Source: an uncultured virus (IMG/VR IMGVR_UViG_2061766007_000596)
Taxonomy: Duplodnaviria; Heunggongvirae; Uroviricota; Caudoviricetes
Length of the DNA: 21,678 bases
Strand: one strand, 5' to 3'
IMG/VR virus record: IMGVR_UViG_2061766007_000596
In this document: piece after piece, positions 4,149-21,428 of the stretch
How the letters are laid out: the number at the start of each line of letters is the position of its first letter
Numbering within the stretch: position 1 is the first letter of the stretch
Program-made: the position numbers and the translations under genes
Notes under the pieces: model-generated
Told to the model about the DNA's origin: nothing
Database searches by the model: none
Seen by the model: only the letters and a program-made list of their open reading frames with translations

Positions 4149-4150
4149 AA

Positions 4151-4235
4151 CGCTGTGAGAAGGTGTCGGACCTTCCTTCCCGTAAAGGAATCCTCTGATT
4201 AGCAATCAGGAGCCTTGCCGCTCGGCCACCACAGC
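4151..4235 (-). tRNA. tRNA-Ser(GCT)
   Basis: Acceptor GCTGTGG/TCACAGC, G73, loop TT GCT AA, long variable arm; atypical T-loop TCCGACA. Confidence 0.8.
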
Positions 4236-4245
4236 AATTTTAAAA

Positions 4246-4330
4246 CAATGCCCCAGGGACTCGAACCCTGAAACCCTTTCGAGGTCTACGGGTTTTCAAG
4301 ACCCGCCCTTCGTCCAGCCAGTCGAGCATC
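4246..4330 (-). tRNA. tRNA-Ser(TGA), atypical D region
   Basis: Anticodon arm CGGGT CT TGA AA ACCCG, long variable arm, T arm CAGGG TTCGAGT CCCTG, acceptor GATGCTC/GGGCATT, G73. Confidence 0.75.
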
Positions 4331-4339
4331 AAATATATA

Positions 4340-4371
4340 AATCGAGGTCTGAAACGCTTCAGACCTCGATT
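4340..4371. repeat. Perfect 14-bp inverted repeat
   Basis: AATCGAGGTCTGAA acgc TTCAGACCTCGATT; overlaps the stop codon of the small ORF. Confidence 0.8.
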
Positions 4372-4493
4372 CCCGCATTTCTCAATTCTCTTTCAAGTTT
4401 TCTAAGTACACCAGGACATTTAATATTCTTCTGGCTTTGCTTTAATCTATTATACCTATCTTTTGTTATTGCAATCTTATCTTCCTTACTCAT
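4359..4493 (-). CDS. Small basic hypothetical protein (44 aa)
   Basis: MSKEDKIAITKDRYNRLKQSQKNIKCPGVLRKLERELRNAGIEV*; alternative upstream start at 4520; GAAAGGTAGG upstream. Confidence 0.55.
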   Translation of the reverse strand: MSKEDKIAITKDRYNRLKQSQKNIKCPGVLRKLERELRNAGIEV

Positions 4494-4529
4494 TCCCAAT
4501 GGAGTGTACCTACCTTTCATAAATTTTAA

Positions 4530-4648
4530 ATATATGGGTAGGGATTTGCACCCTACATAGTATTATGTGAGCACGCCCTTCGACGTTCAGAGTTAACCCA
4601 CTCCCTAATCATCTGACTATTAGCGTCTACCTATTCCGCCACCATATA
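4530..4648 (-). ncRNA. tRNA-like RNA with Leu-type D arm and a ~54-nt insert in place of the anticodon loop
   Basis: Acceptor TATATGG/CCATATA, D region TGGCGGAATAGGTAGACGC, stem ATAGT...ACTAT, T arm TAGGG TGCAAAT CCCTA. Confidence 0.7.
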
Positions 4649-4892
4649 TGCGATTTCTCGACTTATGATTAGATTAACCATAACTAATCTTGAATAGCTC
4701 GTCCGCGACCTCGCATAGTCCTTTCCACTATTCATTCTCTTGTTGCGATTTAAGAGATGGTTTTTACCCCGCTTCCTAAAAGCCCTAGTTTTCTGACTAC
4801 TTATAGTTCTAGTCTTAAAGGCGCGTTTTTCTTAGGGCGTGTATTCTTTTGGCATGAGTGAATAGTAACTCATTTTGCCTTGCCAAGGCGAA

Positions 4893-4975
4893 TGCACTCT
4901 GTGGGACTTGAACCCACAAGACTCTAGGTCAAGGGATTTTAAGTCCCTCGTGTTTACCGATTTCACCAAGAGTGC
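4893..4975 (-). tRNA. tRNA-Leu(TAA)
   Basis: Acceptor GCACTCT/AGAGTGC, A73, AGGGA CT TAA AA TCCCT, variable arm, GTGGG TTCAAGT CCCAC. Confidence 0.92.
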
Positions 4976-4982
4976 AAATTTC

Positions 4983-5083
4983 TAGACACATTTCTTGAGG
5001 TGGGAATCGAACCCACATTTTCGATTTTGCAGATCGATGTCTTAACCTTTTGACTACATAAGTTAATTTGCTGCATGTGTCTA
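4983..5083 (-). ncRNA. CAGCAA-stem RNA E1, enclosing a tRNA-Cys(GCA)-like body
   Basis: Terminal stem TAGACACAT/ATGTGTCTA plus GCAGCAA; inner D arm, TCGAT CT GCA AA ATCGA, GTGGG TTCGATT CCCAC; inner acceptor stem poorly paired. Confidence 0.7.
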
Positions 5084-5086
5084 TAG

Positions 5087-5170
5087 TCGGGGTAGAGGGT
5101 ATCGCGCCCACTCGAAGACTAAGCTAGTTGATTTACAGTCAACCCCACCTCTTTAATGGATTACACCCCG
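5087..5170 (-). tRNA. tRNA-Tyr(GTA), atypical
   Basis: GTTGA CT GTA AA TCAAC, variable arm, acceptor CGGGGTG/TACCCCG plus A73; T-loop CGCGATA. Confidence 0.7.
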
Positions 5171-5176
5171 ATATAC

Positions 5177-5284
5177 AAGGCTCTGCTCAGCTAATGCACT
5201 CCCAACTGTGCTACTCGTAAAAGCTTACAAGACAAGATTCGAACTTGCGACACCTAGCGGTATTTGGTTTGCTGTATGAGCCTT
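5177..5284 (-). ncRNA. CAGCAA-stem RNA E2: circularly permuted tRNA mimic (YrlA-like architecture)
   Basis: AAGGCTC ATACAGCAA..GCTAG GTGTC GCAAG TTCGAAT CTTGT CTTGTAA GCTT TTACGAG TA GCAC AGTTGGGA GTGC A TTAGC..GAGCCTT. Confidence 0.75.
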
Positions 5285-5287
5285 TAA

Positions 5288-5408
5288 GGCGGAAAGACGA
5301 GATTCGAACTCGCAACAACGTGCTCCCCAAGCATTAGAAAAGATTGCTGTTTCTGTCTACATCTAGACAATTTCTATAAACGCGCTCTACCATTGAGCTA
5401 CTTTCCGC
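5288..5408 (-). ncRNA. CAGCAA-stem RNA E3: tRNA body whose anticodon arm is replaced by the CAGCAA module
   Basis: GCGGAAAG TA GCTC AATGGTA GAGC ... TTGTCTA GATG TAGACAG AAACAGCAA ... GCGAG TTCGAAT CTCGT CTTTCCGC. Confidence 0.75.
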
Positions 5409-5558
5409 ATAAAACCAACCTTTAATCTACTTCGGAACATATTCAAGTTTCACCTAACTTAGAGTTCCTAACGTTCCAACTTGGTTGGGTGGTGAAGTTA
5501 TTTAAGATGTATCCGTTTCAAAGATACAAATGCATTCCTAGGTTTTTCAATGCTTTAA

Positions 5559-5629
5559 TAGCGGGTGCGAGATTCGAACTCGCGTCTCAAGGTTATGACC
5601 CTTGCAAGGCTCCGCTCCTCTAACCCGCG
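5559..5629 (-). tRNA. tRNA-Met(CAT), initiator-like
   Basis: CGCGGGT/ACCCGCT with unpaired C1, A11:T24, CAAGG GT CAT AA CCTTG, GCGAG TTCGAAT CTCGC; only two G:C pairs at the base of the anticodon stem. Confidence 0.8.
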
Positions 5630-5752
5630 TCATAGCCCCGTCACCACTCAGGGCGAATTTACTCACTCATTTACTATTGTTGAATGTTACACGCGCGGTA
5701 AATGTCTTTCAATTCTTTGCCAAACCATCTGCAGATAATTTGGCCTGGTGAA

Positions 5753-5825
5753 TCGAACCTAGGGGAGTTGAACCCACTGTTTCAAGAATGAAAATCTTGT
5801 GTACTAACCATTATACGAAGGTCCG
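5753..5825 (-). tRNA. tRNA-Glu(TTC)
   Basis: CGGACCT/AGGTTCG, D stem GTAT/GTAC, CAAGA TT TTC AT TCTTG, T-loop TTCAACT. Confidence 0.85.
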
Positions 5826-5997
5826 AGGGTGGCGGGAAGGGGGATCCCGCCGGAGAGGTAATTGCCTATGAACTTCACAGATATGCGTCGCACTTGAGGG
5901 GTAGTGTCTTCTTCCCTCTCCTCTCGTTAAGGTCAACCTTAGTTTCCTAGGCGAGTGAGCACTTGCTCTAAAGTGTAGACGTGTCACCATCTGCGAA

Positions 5998-6070
5998 TAT
6001 CCGCTGCAGGATTCGAACCTGCGTCACTTGGCTGAGAACCAAGTATCCTTAGCCTCTAGACGAAGCAGAC
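5998..6070 (-). tRNA. tRNA-Glu(CTC)
   Basis: GTCTGCT/AGCGGAT, CTTGG TT CTC AG CCAAG, GCAGG TTCGAAT CCTGC. Confidence 0.9.
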
Positions 6071-6219
6071 AAGTACTCGTCATTCCTCACGAGCGGGAGA
6101 GGTTTCGCTTGCTTTTAACGTCATCGAGCAGTTTGCACTCTACTTTTTGGACGAAAGACAGGAAGAGTTGCGGGTTATTGCCGGCCTCTTTCTTCAAGCC
6201 TTTTCAGCTAAAAAGCATG

Positions 6220-6792
6220 CTAACTGTCTTTTAAAACAATTTTTTCTCTATTAATTAATTTATATTTCCCAGTTGTTAATTTTTTATGACAAGTAGGGCA
6301 TAAAATAATTAAATTATCAATTTCATTATTTTGTCTATTTTCATCTATATGATGAACTTCTAATACATCATCATCTTCATTCCATTTACAAATAGCACAT
6401 TCATGAGGATAATTTTTAAAAGCATTTTTTCGATAATACCAAAAACTAGAAGTACCTGTTGTTATTTTAGCTAAATCTTGATGTTCTCTACAACAATAAT
6501 GATTTCCAGTTTTACTACGATTCATTTTTCTCGTTAATGTAAAAAACTTTTTATGACAATAAGCACATTCAACTTCTGTTCTAGCTTTTTCAAATTTACA
6601 AAAAGGACAAACATAATGAGCTTTATTATCTTTTCTTACATTTGCCCATTTAGTTTCAAATTCATAATTATGTTTTTTACATTTTATTTTTATAGTGGAT
6701 TCTTGATTTTCATAACCACCAATATATTCACAAGTTTTTAATGTATTTTTAAAAACTCTTTCTTTTATTTCTTTTTCAGTTAATTTTGGCAT
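6220..6792 (-). CDS. HNH homing endonuclease with N-terminal Zn-binding modules
   Basis: CAIC...LEVHHIDENRQNNEIDNLIILCPTCHK HNH motif; N-terminal CKKH/CPFC and CAYC/YCC. Confidence 0.9.
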   Translation of the reverse strand: MPKLTEKEIKERVFKNTLKTCEYIGGYENQESTIKIKCKKHNYEFETKWANVRKDNKAHYVCPFCKFEKARTEVECAYCHKKFFTLTRKMNRSKTGNHYCCREHQDLAKITTGTSSFWYYRKNAFKNYPHECAICKWNEDDDVLEVHHIDENRQNNEIDNLIILCPTCHKKLTTGKYKLINREKIVLKDS

Positions 6793-6855
6793 ATAAATTA
6801 CTCTCTTTTAATACCTATAAATTTCAAGGATACCAACCATCTTTAATATATAAAT

Positions 6856-6884
6856 ATTCTATCATATTTTTTTAAAATTGTCAA
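6856..6884 (-). promoter_or_regulatory. sigmaA-type promoter (repeat family)
   Basis: TTGACA-17-TAGAAT with extended -10 TG. Confidence 0.75.
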
Positions 6885-6900
6885 ATATAAATTATTTTCT

Positions 6901-6974
6901 AGACACATTTGAAGTTGTTCGCTCTTCCAAAATTAGTGTAAACAATATTATATAAATGATTGCTGTATGTGTCT
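6901..6974 (-). ncRNA. CAGCAA-stem RNA E4 (minimal form)
   Basis: AGACACAT ACAGCAA ... ATGTGTCT, directly 3' of tRNA-Asn. Confidence 0.65.
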
Positions 6975-6977
6975 GAG

Positions 6978-7051
6978 CGGGACTACTAGGATTTGAACCT
7001 AGGGCCTAATGATTAACAGTCATTCGCTACCACCAACTGAGCTATAGTCCC
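6978..7051 (-). tRNA. tRNA-Asn(GTT)
   Basis: GGGACTA/TAGTCCC, G73, AATGA CT GTT AA TCATT, CTAGG TTCAAAT CCTAG. Confidence 0.9.
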
Positions 7052-7449
7052 AATATATCCTAGCTTAGGTTATAAAGTCGGTGCTAGGGAACCGCCCACA
7101 TATTCTTACACCCTTATGGGGAAGGGGAGAGTCTTTTCGATAGAATGCTCAACCTCGGACTCGCGAGACCGCCTTATACACGTTAGCCGCTTTTCTATCT
7201 ATTTAGCTAAATGCACTTCATTCCTTGCTCTACGAAGCGAATTATAATGGTACAACCATAACTCCGGACAGTTCGGCTCTTTTTTAGACTTACGTACTAA
7301 GGTGAGACAAACATAACAAAACATCTCCTTAACGCCATTTTTTGCCATTCTTGGTAGGCACTAATGTGTTTTAAAGGAAACTCTAGTATCAAACTCTATA
7401 AGACATTGGAAATTACTCATGCATTCTCATTTCCTTATCTTATATAAAT

Positions 7450-7478
7450 ATTATATCATAATTTTTTAAAATTGTCAA
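7450..7478 (-). promoter_or_regulatory. sigmaA-type promoter (repeat family)
   Basis: TTGACA-17-TATAAT, TG extension. Confidence 0.85.
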
Positions 7479-7493
7479 TTATGATATAATTAC

Positions 7494-7639
7494 TAGGCAA
7501 ACTACGTTTCAAAAAACCATTGAGGAAAATCATATTGAACGTTTAGTAGAAGTTTTTGATTTTTTACAAGTTTTACAGACTTGACTTTTCAATTATAATA
7601 ATTATTCTATATTATATAAAAGTTTGCTGCATTTGCCTA
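7494..7639 (-). ncRNA. CAGCAA-stem RNA E5, carrying an isolated Tyr(GTA) anticodon stem-loop
   Basis: TAGGCAAA T GCAGCAA ... TTTGCCTA; internal CAAGT CTGTAAA ACTTG at 7567-7583. Confidence 0.65.
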
Positions 7640-7640
7640 A

Positions 7641-7713
7641 AGCCACCGGAGGGAATCGAACCCACAACCCTCTCATTACAAGTGAGATGCGCTGCCTGTT
7701 GCGCCACGGGGGC
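7641..7713 (-). tRNA. tRNA-Thr(TGT)
   Basis: GCCCCCG/CGGTGGC, D stem GCGC/GCGC, TCTCA CT TGT AA TGAGA, T-loop TTCGATT. Confidence 0.9.
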
Positions 7714-7754
7714 ATATTTGTTGAAAGGCTTTTTACCTTTCAACTTATATAAAT

Positions 7755-7783
7755 ATTATAACATAAATTTTTAAAAATGTCAA
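7755..7783 (-). promoter_or_regulatory. sigmaA-type promoter (repeat family)
   Basis: TTGACA-17-TATAAT, TG extension. Confidence 0.85.
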
Positions 7784-7786
7784 GTA

Positions 7787-8332
7787 TCATTTAAAATCGT
7801 GGTCTTGAATTGTAAGTCTAGCATTTTTCCAATGAGTAGCAAAATAAAGATATTCTGTCATATCAATTCTCTGCCCCTCATACACAACAATGGAATTACC
7901 ATTCATAGCATACCACGCTGCATCAATGCATTCTTGGGGGAGATCACCATCATCATACATTTTTAATGCTTTCTTCAATCTACCATCGGTTTTTGGACGA
8001 AATTGACCTGATTCATAAATAACTGTTTCTATTGTATCTTCAAAGTCTTCATCTTCAACCCTGTTCATAACTACAATTCCAACAGCCTGTTGTCCGGCTT
8101 CACACTGATTACCAGCTTCACACCAAATTAAAGCAGACAATAATCTTAATTCTTCTGATTGCTTTTGTTCTCCTAGTTCTTTAGCATAAGCCCATTTAGC
8201 TTTGTCTTCTGTTATATCTTGTACCATTTCTGTTATTCCTACACTTGGCATTATATCTACCGCTTGTGCTTTAATCGGGGTACTTAATAACAATAAAAAA
8301 GAACTAATAGTTATTACTTTCTTTAATTTCAT
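7787..8332 (-). CDS. Cell wall hydrolase, SleB/CwlJ (Hydrolase_2) family, with signal peptide
   Basis: LLSALIWCEAGNQ..GQQAVGIVVMNRV...F.DTIETVIYESGQF; N-terminal K-rich/hydrophobic/AQA signal. Confidence 0.85.
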   Translation of the reverse strand: MKLKKVITISSFLLLLSTPIKAQAVDIMPSVGITEMVQDITEDKAKWAYAKELGEQKQSEELRLLSALIWCEAGNQCEAGQQAVGIVVMNRVEDEDFEDTIETVIYESGQFRPKTDGRLKKALKMYDDGDLPQECIDAAWYAMNGNSIVVYEGQRIDMTEYLYFATHWKNARLTIQDHDFK

Positions 8333-8370
8333 TTTTCTCTCCTTAATGCATTAGCCTATACAAGAGGAAG

Positions 8371-8443
8371 TAGGAATGACAGGACTTGAACCTGCGATCT
8401 CCACATCCCAAATGTGGCGCCTTTCCAACTAGGCTACATCCCT
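8371..8443 (-). tRNA. tRNA-Pro(TGG)
   Basis: AGGGATG/CATTCCT, A73, CCACA TT TGG GA TGTGG, GCAGG TTCAAGT CCTGT. Confidence 0.92.
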
Positions 8444-8645
8444 AGAATTGGTGGGTGTCTTACCCACCGCCAAGTAAATCAAAATATATAGACACTATAG
8501 AAACGATTTACAATTTTCAACTTCGACATTGAAGGATGGCTAATCCGCACCTACGGTTTTACGACCTTAGTAGATATCGTCCACACACTATCGCGAATAT
8601 AAGTTATTAGATATGTTTTATATCTTTTCAATAACTTATATAAAT

Positions 8646-8674
8646 ATTATAACATAATTTTTTAAAATTGTCAA
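8646..8674 (-). promoter_or_regulatory. sigmaA-type promoter (repeat family)
   Basis: TTGACA-17-TATAAT, TG extension. Confidence 0.85.
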
Positions 8675-8694
8675 ATATATGTTATAATATTTAA

Positions 8695-8767
8695 TGGAAC
8701 TACAGGGGATTGAACCCTGAACCTCTGCCTTGCAAGGGCAGCGCTCTCCCAGTTGAGCTATAGCCCC
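8695..8767 (-). tRNA. tRNA-Ala(TGC)
   Basis: GGGGCTA/TAGTTCC with G3:U70, CTGCC CT TGC AA GGCAG. Confidence 0.95.
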
Positions 8768-8913
8768 AAAATGGCGGGATTTTTTCAACCNNNNNNNNNN
8801 NNNNNNNNNNNNNNNNNNNNNNNNNNNNNNNNNNNNNNNNNNNNNNNNNTCTACTTCTCATGTTGCCAATTTAAGATTGCGCATTAACCAATCACCTGAA
8901 TGAAAGGAGGGTT

Positions 8914-15780: not shown

Positions 15781-15930
15781 ATGGATATTGAAAATCTTAT
15801 CAAAGATTGCATTAGACTTGTATATGTTAATGAAGGTTCTACTGTTGAAAATGCAGATTGCGCTATGCAGTGGAATTGGGGTGAAATTAAAGAACTTATA
15901 GAAAAATATAAAGAGAGGTACTCAAAATGA
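15781..15930 (+). CDS. Small hypothetical protein (49 aa)
   Basis: GAGGT RBS; MDIENLIKDCIRLVYVNEG... Confidence 0.6.
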   Translation: MDIENLIKDCIRLVYVNEGSTVENADCAMQWNWGEIKELIEKYKERYSK

Positions 15931-16064
15931 AATTAACAAAATCTGATATTGAAGTTATAATGTGTATGTTAGAGGACATTGACTCTATGTGGGGCATGAA
16001 ACCCGAAGAGCGTGACCTGTATGAAAGATTGACATTAAAAAAGGAAAATAATAATAATGATTGA
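15927..16064 (+). CDS. Small hypothetical protein (45 aa)
   Basis: ATGA overlap with the previous ORF, GAGGT RBS; MKLTKSDIEVIMCMLEDI... Confidence 0.6.
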   Translation: MKLTKSDIEVIMCMLEDIDSMWGMKPEERDLYERLTLKKENNNND

Positions 16065-16236
16065 TTATTAAGCGGACGAACGAGCATTATGATTACATAA
16101 TGCTCGCTTTTTTGTTGTCTACTTGCCGGCGCGCGCACGGACGTGCCGCGCCGTTCTACCCCCCGCGATCCTATAGCGCAATTTTTCTTGTTTGTTTGAA
16201 GTTCCGGATCTTTCGCCCAGAATCCCGGAATCTCAC

Positions 16237-16561
16237 TTGACAATTTGAAAAATTTTTGTTATAATATTTAAAAAAACCTTTTTTAAAACCGCCGGACGAA
16301 TTTGTCGATTTTCCTTCCCGCCGGACTTTTACTCGTTTGATTAGTTTTCATTAAACTACAGCTAACAAGAGATCAACAAGAGAAGATAAAAAAGGACACT
16401 TGACATCTTTGAAAAAATATGATATAATATTTATATAGAAAGCAAGGAGTAGCGCTATAAATTGGGCTGCAAACATCTAAGCTACTTTTTTTTAAAAAGC
16501 GCAACAAAAGCCAAGCTAAAATACGCCACCGGTTGACAATTTGAAAAATTTTTGTTATAAT
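16237..16561 (+). promoter_or_regulatory. Three tandem sigmaA-type promoters (16237-16265, 16400-16428, 16533-16561)
   Basis: Each is TTGACA-17-TATAAT with TG; the first and third share TTGACAATTTGAAAAATTTTTGTTATAATAT. Confidence 0.8.
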
Positions 16562-20692: not shown

Positions 20693-21364
20693 ATGAGTTT
20701 TCTTAATGAACTGATGAATTTATATGTACCTGATGATTTCGGTATTGATGATTATGATGGAAGTCTGACTTACTCTGCCTCAGAGTATGAGCGGGAAGTC
20801 TATCATATTGCTGAAAAGTGCGGAATTACAATTCAGACCAACTATGGATGTACACAGTTTGTAATCATCACCGAAACGAGAGACGTTTATAAGATACCTT
20901 TCGCTGGCACTCTTTACTGCGACTACATTGGTGATGGTAAGAGTGAAGATGTTTTTGAGATATTCAAAATTGACCATTCAAAGAGAGCAGTTGACCTGTA
21001 TAACGAAGCAGTTGATGCAAAAGTAGAAGATTTCTTTTCCGAGATCGCTCTTGTTGGCTGGTCTAAGAATAACTACCCTATTTATCAGCAGGCTTGGGCA
21101 TGTACGTACTTTGACAAGAAAGCAGAACCTTCCGCAGAGTCTACAACAAAAGCAGAGAAAATGGAAGCAAAGAAGTACATTCCTTTTGACCGTGACTGGC
21201 TTGCTCTTGCTATTGATTTCTTTGGTGAGGAAAAGGTATTTGCTCTTCTTCAGTTCATTGATGACAATGATATTGATGACCTACACAGAAACAATTATGG
21301 TTTTGATGACGCCGGACTCCCTGTCATCTTCGATTATTCATCATATATCGACAGTTATATGTAA
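20693..21364 (+). CDS. Protein-kinase-like (PKL fold) phosphotransferase
   Basis: G.T..V....DVYKIP (beta-3 Lys), DDLHRNNYG catalytic loop, PVIFDYS Mg-binding motif. Confidence 0.7.
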   Translation: MSFLNELMNLYVPDDFGIDDYDGSLTYSASEYEREVYHIAEKCGITIQTNYGCTQFVIITETRDVYKIPFAGTLYCDYIGDGKSEDVFEIFKIDHSKRAVDLYNEAVDAKVEDFFSEIALVGWSKNNYPIYQQAWACTYFDKKAEPSAESTTKAEKMEAKKYIPFDRDWLALAIDFFGEEKVFALLQFIDDNDIDDLHRNNYGFDDAGLPVIFDYSSYIDSYM

Positions 21365-21368
21365 TAAT

Positions 21369-21397
21369 TTGACTTTATTAAAATTTTATGTTATAAT
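21369..21397 (+). promoter_or_regulatory. sigmaA-type promoter (repeat family)
   Basis: TTGACT-17-TATAAT, TG extension. Confidence 0.8.
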
Positions 21398-21428
21398 ATT
21401 TATATAATAAAGAAAAGGGGACAAACGA

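Follow-up and report, generated by a model that had tools for sequence, protein, structure and literature searches.

A non-decoding, YrlA-like candidate RNA gene among rearranged tRNA genes of uncultured rumen phages

Circularly permuted tRNA genes, as in Cyanidioschyzon merolae and some archaea, carry the 3′ half of a tRNA upstream of its 5′ half, with a short linker between the two and a leader and trailer that pair with each other; the genes for two-piece tmRNA are permuted as well, the 3′ acceptor piece lying ahead of the 5′ acceptor piece. Another rearrangement of the tRNA body is that of the YrlA-type tRNA mimics, previously described as Ro60 partners in Chen et al. 2014 (PMC4201824). 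That paper gives the YrlA layout as V-T-AS-D, for a V hairpin, the T arm, a closed stem resembling the acceptor and the D arm; a motif GNCGAAN0-1G near the 5′ end is the presumed Ro60 contact. It places YrlA genes within 4 kb of Ro60 on the same strand, and reports that RNase P cleaves the M. smegmatis YrlA, the one whose acceptor stem is 7 bp long, and that this RNA is given CCA. That YrlA folds like tRNA is stated in the abstract of Wang et al. 2018 (10.1101/312249).

The element described here lies within a phage tRNA gene array, in a stretch of 21,678 nt (the window) from an uncultured virus. The window resembles part of a large tailed phage, with ORFs nearly all on the minus strand, a GC content of about 30-45% and recognisable genes for an HNH endonuclease, a SleB-type cell-wall hydrolase and an M28-like peptidase. 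The nearest cultured-phage matches of this peptidase are in Enterococcus phages, at 33.5% identity, and homologues of it at 45-57% identity are numerous, on contigs that reach about 150 kb. Sequencing runs containing the window's DNA are labelled bovine gut metagenome, and the two best-matching runs are possibly its source. On the minus strand, ARAGORN places 11 tRNA genes in the interval 4150-8768, in agreement with Rfam. Searches for close copies came back empty: blastn of the element region against cultured phages gave nothing useful, an exact 26-mer from it had no match in IMG/VR, and a locus search with a single protein found no near relatives. Two stretches of the array that lack ORFs, 7133-7592 and 4623-4865, are covered by RNA-library contigs (run X7), with 10 and 17 letters differing; these may represent non-coding RNAs, or DNA carried over into the library. 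One metatranscriptome run, seen as contigs only, had next to no RNA depth in the bins over the element, which counts neither for nor against its expression.

The first-pass annotation had described a circularly permuted tRNA with a closed acceptor stem, set on a non-canonical terminal stem. All the segments that it listed are present on the minus strand between 5284 and 5177, and they are given here in transcript order, with the flanking nucleotides to about 5174:

5278-5284, minus strand: 5′ strand of the clamp (terminal) stem, AAGGCUC; pairs 7/7 with 5177-5183, pair probabilities 0.79-1.0
5269-5277, minus strand: AUA and CAGCAA, just 3′ of the clamp 5′ strand; contains the lineage-wide ACAGCAA motif and is common to related loci
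Between CAGCAA and GCUAG, minus strand: ACCAAAUACC (read from the sequence, as is UA below)
5250-5263, minus strand: V hairpin AUACC-GCUA-GGUGU, in both the minimum-free-energy (MFE) and centroid structures; overlaps GCUAG and GUGUC
5258-5254, minus strand: GCUAG, originally read as the 3′ strand of an anticodon stem
5253-5249, minus strand: GUGUC, originally read as the variable loop
5232-5248, minus strand: T arm GCAAG-UUCGAAU-CUUGU; 5/5 pairs, canonical T loop
5214-5231, minus strand: closed acceptor hairpin CUUGUAA-GCUU-UUACGAG; 7/7 pairs, one of them G.U, probabilities 0.74-0.99
5213-5212, minus strand: UA, positions 8-9
5211-5196, minus strand: D arm GCAC-AGUUGGGA-GUGC; 4/4 pairs, loop with A14, G15 and G18G19
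5184-5195, minus strand: linker A-UUAGC-UGAGCA, with A at 5195, UUAGC at 5190-5194 and GCUG at 5188-5191
5174-5183, minus strand: 3′ strand of the clamp, GAGCCUU, then GUA; G or AG after this strand is usual among relatives

By inspection, all 28 of the 28 proposed pairs are standard or G.U, and U8, A14, G15/C48, G18G19 and U54-A58 are in place, which argues against decay. The acceptor helix has A3-U70 and a single G.U pair, at 5-68; the alanine-type G3.U70 is not present in it. The element is invisible to tRNA finders in its native order: neither ARAGORN, nor ARAGORN with introns and lowered thresholds, nor the Rfam tRNA model (E ≤ 10) made a call over it. Re-permutation in silico, which the first-pass annotation had put forward as a check, does lead ARAGORN to call the whole 108 nt as a tRNA with an ‘intron’; its tRNA-Met(cat) reading of that sequence was rejected, as it needs an artificial junction and an implausible 20-nt variable region. 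The MFE of the element is -34.1 kcal/mol, modestly better than that of shuffled sequences (z = -2.08). Short blastn comparison of the two halves with 727 canonical phage tRNAs gave only weak best matches, to various T arms on one side and most closely to tRNA-Ala for the D-arm region (20/22 nt), and because these matches are weak no single parent tRNA could be assigned.

How the ends of the tRNA-like core are folded depends on two competing pairings. The original assignment of GCUAG and UUAGC to an anticodon stem holds to the extent that the two can pair 5/5, and on the sequence this reading has the geometry of a textbook class-I tRNA, its variable loop being 5 nt long and G15/C48 and A26/G44 falling into place; the energy model, however, gives it about zero probability (-23.0 versus -34.1 kcal/mol for the MFE), and relatives do not favour it either. 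In the MFE structure, CAGC of the ACAGCAA motif pairs with GCUG (5188-5191) after the D arm, and the V hairpin forms before the T arm. Of nine permuted relatives that were folded, five (L136, L142, L153, L149 and L134; L133-L212 denote loci from related phages) have an MFE structure that combines the clamp, a hairpin of 4- or 5-nt loop at the position of the V hairpin, a T arm, a closed acceptor and a D arm. Comparison with relatives thus favours the V-hairpin reading over the pairing of GCUAG with UUAGC, within energy models that ignore tRNA tertiary contacts.

With the V hairpin, the predicted fold follows the YrlA module order, a V stem-loop upstream of the T arm and then the closed acceptor and D arm. 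The observation that T arm, closed acceptor stem and D arm succeed one another as in YrlA was borne out, YrlA being the only non-tRNA family in Rfam to match. Membership in that family, as distinct from its layout, is not supported by the tests run. The Rfam YrlA model (RF02553) aligns with the element over model positions 1-114 at 30.3 bits against a gathering score of 69, with an E value of 1e-4 when 411 nt were searched and 1.4e-3 over 5.6 kb, and it returned no match at the gathering threshold. The Ro60 motif GNCGAAN0-1G is absent near the 5′ end, where the aligned stretch reads GGCUCAUA. No TROVE/Ro60 domain (Pfam) was found in the 27 ORFs scanned among the window's 49 of at least 60 aa. 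The scan took in all minus-strand ORFs of 100 aa or more but one, 15896-16243; this one and 21051-21407 on the plus strand, the ORFs of that size outside the scan, encode 115-118 aa, far under the length of a Ro60 protein. Five records of related phages, three of them at least 90% complete, likewise contained no TROVE domain.

A positive control bears on how the YrlA score is to be read. We searched IMG/VR for T loops with a D arm 19-30 nt further on, which gave at least 121 stretches and 126 pattern matches. Among the matches listed, acceptor pairing was 7/7 in 11 of 126, against about 0.13 expected (p = 0.375 per pair), and the closed-acceptor elements scored 31.0-52.7 bits with the YrlA model, all below the gathering score. 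A TROVE gene adjoins the control elements in seven of the ten records tested (L026, L029, L044, L054, L058, L061 and L076); the other three records had none, and two of these are complete, at 401 kb and 139.5 kb. As the TROVE-adjacent elements all fall below the gathering score, the Rfam YrlA threshold misses genuine Ro60-linked phage YrlAs. A motif (G)UUACUUC lies upstream of the V hairpin in six of eight TROVE-adjacent elements, with variants in L026 and L044.

We then looked at the element's own lineage. An alignment of 30 homologues of the neighbouring peptidase led to 80 loci from related IMG/VR phages, and 81 sources were scanned; the nearest homologue is 57% identical, and conservation was judged on diverged relatives, not on close copies of the element. 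A strict scanner demanded, in order, a fully paired T stem (5/5, TTYRA loop), a fully paired hairpin (7/7, loop 3-16 nt), two nucleotides and a fully paired D stem (4/4, GG in the loop), and it made 27 matches on the gene strand. All but one of these fall outside ARAGORN tRNAs; among those 26, the match in L137 looks spurious on inspection. In an earlier form that allowed hairpin loops of 3-10 nt, the scanner made no match in shuffled copies of 1.5 Mb. In all we distinguished 30 clamp-linked elements, 23 permuted and 7 non-permuted. Their flanks share a 5′ strand (A/U)AG(A/G)CNN, 2-4 nt and CAGCAA, with the complementary 3′ strand after the D arm, usually followed by G. The clamp is paired 7/7, with ACAGCAA, in all 23 distinct permuted elements, through 17 different sequences, and such conservation of pairing amounts to covariation. 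Among five Gly-type orthologues paired cells make up 98.2%, with compensatory double changes at two acceptor pairs, and a comparison of L163 with L170a finds T arm, D arm and flanks alike around wholly different acceptor strands that still pair 7/7 and 6/7. We count the compensatory pairs and the acceptor replacement in favour of a structure that would be under selection. U33 has been lost in three of the five Gly-type orthologues. Clamped canonical tRNAs in these phages, as called by ARAGORN, often have odd anticodon loops, with AAA, ACC, UCA and four- or two-base ‘anticodons’ (for example L134 at 10872, L142 at 16603 and 20147, L144 at 6584 and L163 at 12974).

The terminal stem that the first-pass annotation called non-canonical is there and pairs 7/7, but it is a generic clamp of the phage lineage that also surrounds ordinary tRNAs. 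The window's array holds five copies of CAGCAA in like context, at 7629, 6965, 5349, 5274 and 5073, the last of which, with its partner at 4990-4984, encloses the window's tRNA-Cys. Besides the element, three clamp cassettes can be drawn:

7639-7495, minus strand: clamp 5′ strand, 2-3 nt, CAGCAA, AT-rich cargo, complementary 3′ strand then AG
6975-6901, minus strand: clamp cassette with AT-rich cargo only; complementary 3′ strand then AG
5082-4984, minus strand: clamp cassette enclosing tRNA-Cys; complementary 3′ strand then AG

Across the related phages the motif lies at most 45 nt upstream of 36 of 722 canonical tRNAs, and a closing stem is present in 32 of those 36; at random positions the corresponding counts are 8/729 for the motif and 3/729 for the closing stem. 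Gene-strand CAGCAA sites have a partner within 200 nt in 180 of 462 cases, compared with 93 for a control 7-mer and 48 of 430 for opposite-strand sites, and some clamps enclose just 25-60 nt and precede ORFs. Because it flanks ordinary tRNAs (32/722) and ORF leaders, the clamp would be a poor candidate for a dedicated Ro60 handle. In the window copies at 7639 and 6975 the clamp 5′ strand also reads as a -35-like hexamer, placed 17 nt ahead of TATAAT. The idea that the clamp is a plain promoter was rejected: it fails for the element's own copy and leaves the covariation with the 3′ strand unexplained.

Immediately on either side of the element lie two further unusual tRNA-like genes:

About 5289-5408, minus strand: interrupted tRNA-Pro(GGG)-like gene, upstream neighbour; Rfam tRNA 44.3 bits, 58-nt gap in the anticodon arm
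5086-5170, minus strand: low-scoring tRNA-Tyr(GUA)-like gene, downstream neighbour; called only by ARAGORN with lowered thresholds (-ps)

The tRNA-Pro-like gene has normal tRNA topology, but its anticodon stem is interrupted between nucleotides 29 and 30 by 47 extra nt, which include a hairpin (UGUCUA-GAUG-UAGACA), then GAA, then ACAGCAA. Its 5′ part gives CGU after position 26, and its 3′ part gives GC, the loop UUGGGGA and GCACG, so that closing the gap at 29/30 yields a perfect 5-bp stem and a proline-type loop; the rejoined sequence is called by ARAGORN at default settings as a 72-nt tRNA-Pro(ggg), with C1-G72 and a possible extra G-1/C73 pair. Three DNA runs and one RNA run, all as contigs, contained no joint at the insertion site of this gene (5289-5407). 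In one low-depth contig of a relative (DNA run X4) the insertion-bearing middle of the gene, at about 5318-5384, is replaced by 18 other letters, which by our reading would form an ordinary uninterrupted anticodon arm of another isotype on a similar tRNA body. In the tRNA-Tyr-like gene the D stem is 3 bp long, its loop lacks GG and the T loop, CGCGAUA, is non-canonical; Rfam made no call at 5086-5170.

The same operation can be applied to the whole family. When the 30 distinct clamp-linked elements were rejoined in silico, a canonical anticodon arm appeared in 15, compared with 87 of 870 mismatched pairs of halves, the junction falling mostly between nucleotides 29 and 30. ARAGORN at default settings called all 15 as full tRNAs (Pro 8, Gly 3, Val 2, Cys 1, Ile 1), and for 12 of them the DNA examined contains no canonical tRNA of the same anticodon. 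The 3′ half of one rejoinable element matches annotated tRNA-Pro genes of Bacillus phages at 83-85%, and a relative's element, compared with cultured phages, matched nothing but ordinary tRNA genes, in eight records: six at a tRNA-Pro, one at a tRNA-Met and one at no annotated feature. Rejoining the window's own element gave no 5-bp/7-nt arm with U33 and a purine at 37, every split of the flanks placing G or A at 33; on this ground the candidate reading of it as a decoding tRNA was rejected, and the earlier statement that it has neither an anticodon nor a free 3′ end was correct. No bulge-helix-bulge could be drawn by hand at the junctions. RtcB was found in none of five related records; four of the five have sub-threshold matches to PF09414 (RNA_ligase) in ORFs of about 465 aa, which could be DNA ligases.

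The reading that we prefer, and take to be probable though with appreciable doubt, is that we are dealing with a genuine RNA gene that arose from a tRNA through circular permutation: non-decoding, built of an elbow and a 7-bp acceptor closed by GCUU, laid out like YrlA but lacking a Ro60 partner, and belonging to a family of rearranged tRNA genes that is specific to this lineage of large, uncultured rumen phages. Having no anticodon loop, the element would not decode. It would presumably be co-transcribed with the tRNA array and excised when the tRNA-like gene ahead of it is processed at its 3′ end and the tRNA-Tyr-like gene behind it at its 5′ end, the latter step setting the element's 3′ end. 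Since its 7-bp acceptor stem would be stacked on the T arm, the GCUU cap might, by analogy with the M. smegmatis YrlA, be opened through cleavage by RNase P on the 5′ side of U1 and by RNase Z behind G73, with CCA then added. The product would be a tRNA-shaped mimic in one or two pieces, which may occupy some factor that reads the tRNA body rather than the decoding site of the ribosome.

The sequences of the caps offer some clues to such processing. None of the ten canonical tRNAs examined in the window encodes CCA, and their trailers are C/U-rich (A-CTT, G-CTC), like the cap, G-CUU. Among the related loci L133-L212, CCA is encoded in nearly all tRNA genes (17/17 in L153, 13/13 in L199) or in none (0/10 in the window, 0/20 in L155). 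Six caps among the relatives start with N-CCA (L134, L136, L142, L144, L149 and L188), and phages whose canonical tRNAs encode CCA have such caps in only 4 of roughly 14 listed; as most caps in these phages lack N-CCA, a free CCA end is not a general constraint.

Several other explanations have to be set against an RNA gene of this kind. The element could be a decaying relic, a permuted or duplicated tRNA gene that has lost its anticodon loop and has no function: half of the relatives (15/30) keep a complete anticodon arm across the junction that the window copy does without, U33 is already gone in three of the five Gly-type orthologues, and the element is barely covered in the one RNA run, seen as contigs. 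We consider this unlikely, given that the element's helices and clamp are intact and its tertiary-contact nucleotides canonical, that anticodon-less members with V hairpins recur in at least five diverged phages, and that the acceptor pairing of L163 and L170a survives complete sequence replacement. It would surprise us more if the element were a true YrlA Y RNA, whose terminal stem docks Ro60/Rsr supplied by the host or by an unseen part of the phage genome while the tRNA-like domain recruits an effector. The full-length match to the Rfam model speaks for that possibility, as do the TROVE-adjacent IMG/VR elements (TROVE in 7/10 tested) that have the same core and likewise score below threshold, at 31.0-52.7 bits. 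Against it stand the absence of GNCGAAN0-1G, the clamp that is also placed around ordinary tRNAs (32/722) and ORF leaders, and the lack of TROVE in the five related records, three of them at least 90% complete, and in the 27 window ORFs scanned, when YrlA genes are described in PMC4201824 as lying within 4 kb of Ro60 on the same strand.

Two further readings concern the element as a tRNA gene or as no gene at all. We give very little credence to a functional circularly permuted tRNA gene, in which the ends would be joined and the cap opened to give a decoding tRNA, as in Cyanidioschyzon merolae. Its gene order, its short linker between acceptor strands and its leader/trailer stem are those of permuted tRNA genes, and fifteen relatives rejoin in silico to canonical tRNAs; yet no split of the element gives U33 with purine 37, no bulge-helix-bulge was drawn by hand, RtcB is found in 0/5 related records and no splicing endonuclease is known in bacteria. 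That the element is a false positive, the T arm of one tRNA and the D arm of the next read together as in a dimeric tRNA, or plain chance, is scarcely credible. The element does lie inside a tRNA array, and Chen et al. 2014 (PMC4201824) caution against just this dimeric artefact in tandem tRNA genes. Its acceptor strands nonetheless pair with each other 7/7, with no outer 5′ or 3′ acceptor partner upstream or downstream, so that the sequence itself refutes a dimeric-tRNA artefact; neither half is covered by a tRNA caller, and among the 126 IMG/VR matches listed 7/7 pairing occurs 11 times where about 0.13 is expected.

The family around the element, with an interrupted tRNA-Pro next door and permuted relatives that amount to whole tRNAs, is the more interesting result. 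On a bolder interpretation, which we offer tentatively and regard as doubtful, this lineage of rumen phages would carry real permuted and interrupted tRNA genes, broken mostly at 29/30 and with their pieces held together by the clamp with its ACAGCAA bulge; an undescribed pathway would remove or tolerate the extra arm, and the window's element would be an offshoot between a tRNA gene and a YrlA-type mimic. If so, it would show how Y-RNA-like tRNA mimics arise. On our preferred reading of the element as a non-decoding RNA gene, the YrlA layout appears without Ro60, inside a phage tRNA array, and belongs to a recurrent class of phage RNA genes missed both by tRNA finders and by the Rfam YrlA threshold. 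The family also holds genes, some permuted and some of normal topology, in which closing the junction yields a complete tRNA, suggesting a concrete route from tRNA gene to mimic and raising the testable possibility of bacteriophages with permuted or interrupted tRNA genes. A literature search, supplements aside, turned up nothing on point about permuted or intron-containing phage tRNAs or orphan phage Y RNAs.

Set beside the permuted tRNA genes of C. merolae and archaea, the locus is alike in gene order, short linker and paired leader and trailer, and in having relatives that can be rejoined mostly at 29/30; the element differs in belonging to a bacterial virus and in having neither a bulge-helix-bulge that could be drawn nor an anticodon loop. 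It shares its permuted order with two-piece tmRNA but has a full D arm and no tag reading frame, and ARAGORN, with the tmRNA search included, reported no tmRNA in the window. The Ro60-adjacent YrlA-like RNAs of phages in IMG/VR resemble it in their T arm, 7-bp closed acceptor, D arm and sub-threshold YrlA score; unlike it they have TROVE next door, and six of eight carry (G)UUACUUC instead of ACAGCAA. From YrlA itself the element is set apart by a score of 30.3 rather than 69 bits, by the absence of GNCGAAN0-1G and of a Ro60/TROVE gene in the window ORFs scanned and the five related records, by its place within a tRNA array, and by a handle, the ACAGCAA clamp, that also flanks ordinary tRNAs. 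What it has in common with YrlA is a body that offers neither anticodon nor free CCA, the nucleotides of the tRNA tertiary contacts, and the succession of V hairpin, T arm, closed acceptor-like stem and D arm, enclosed by a stem of its 5′ and 3′ ends.
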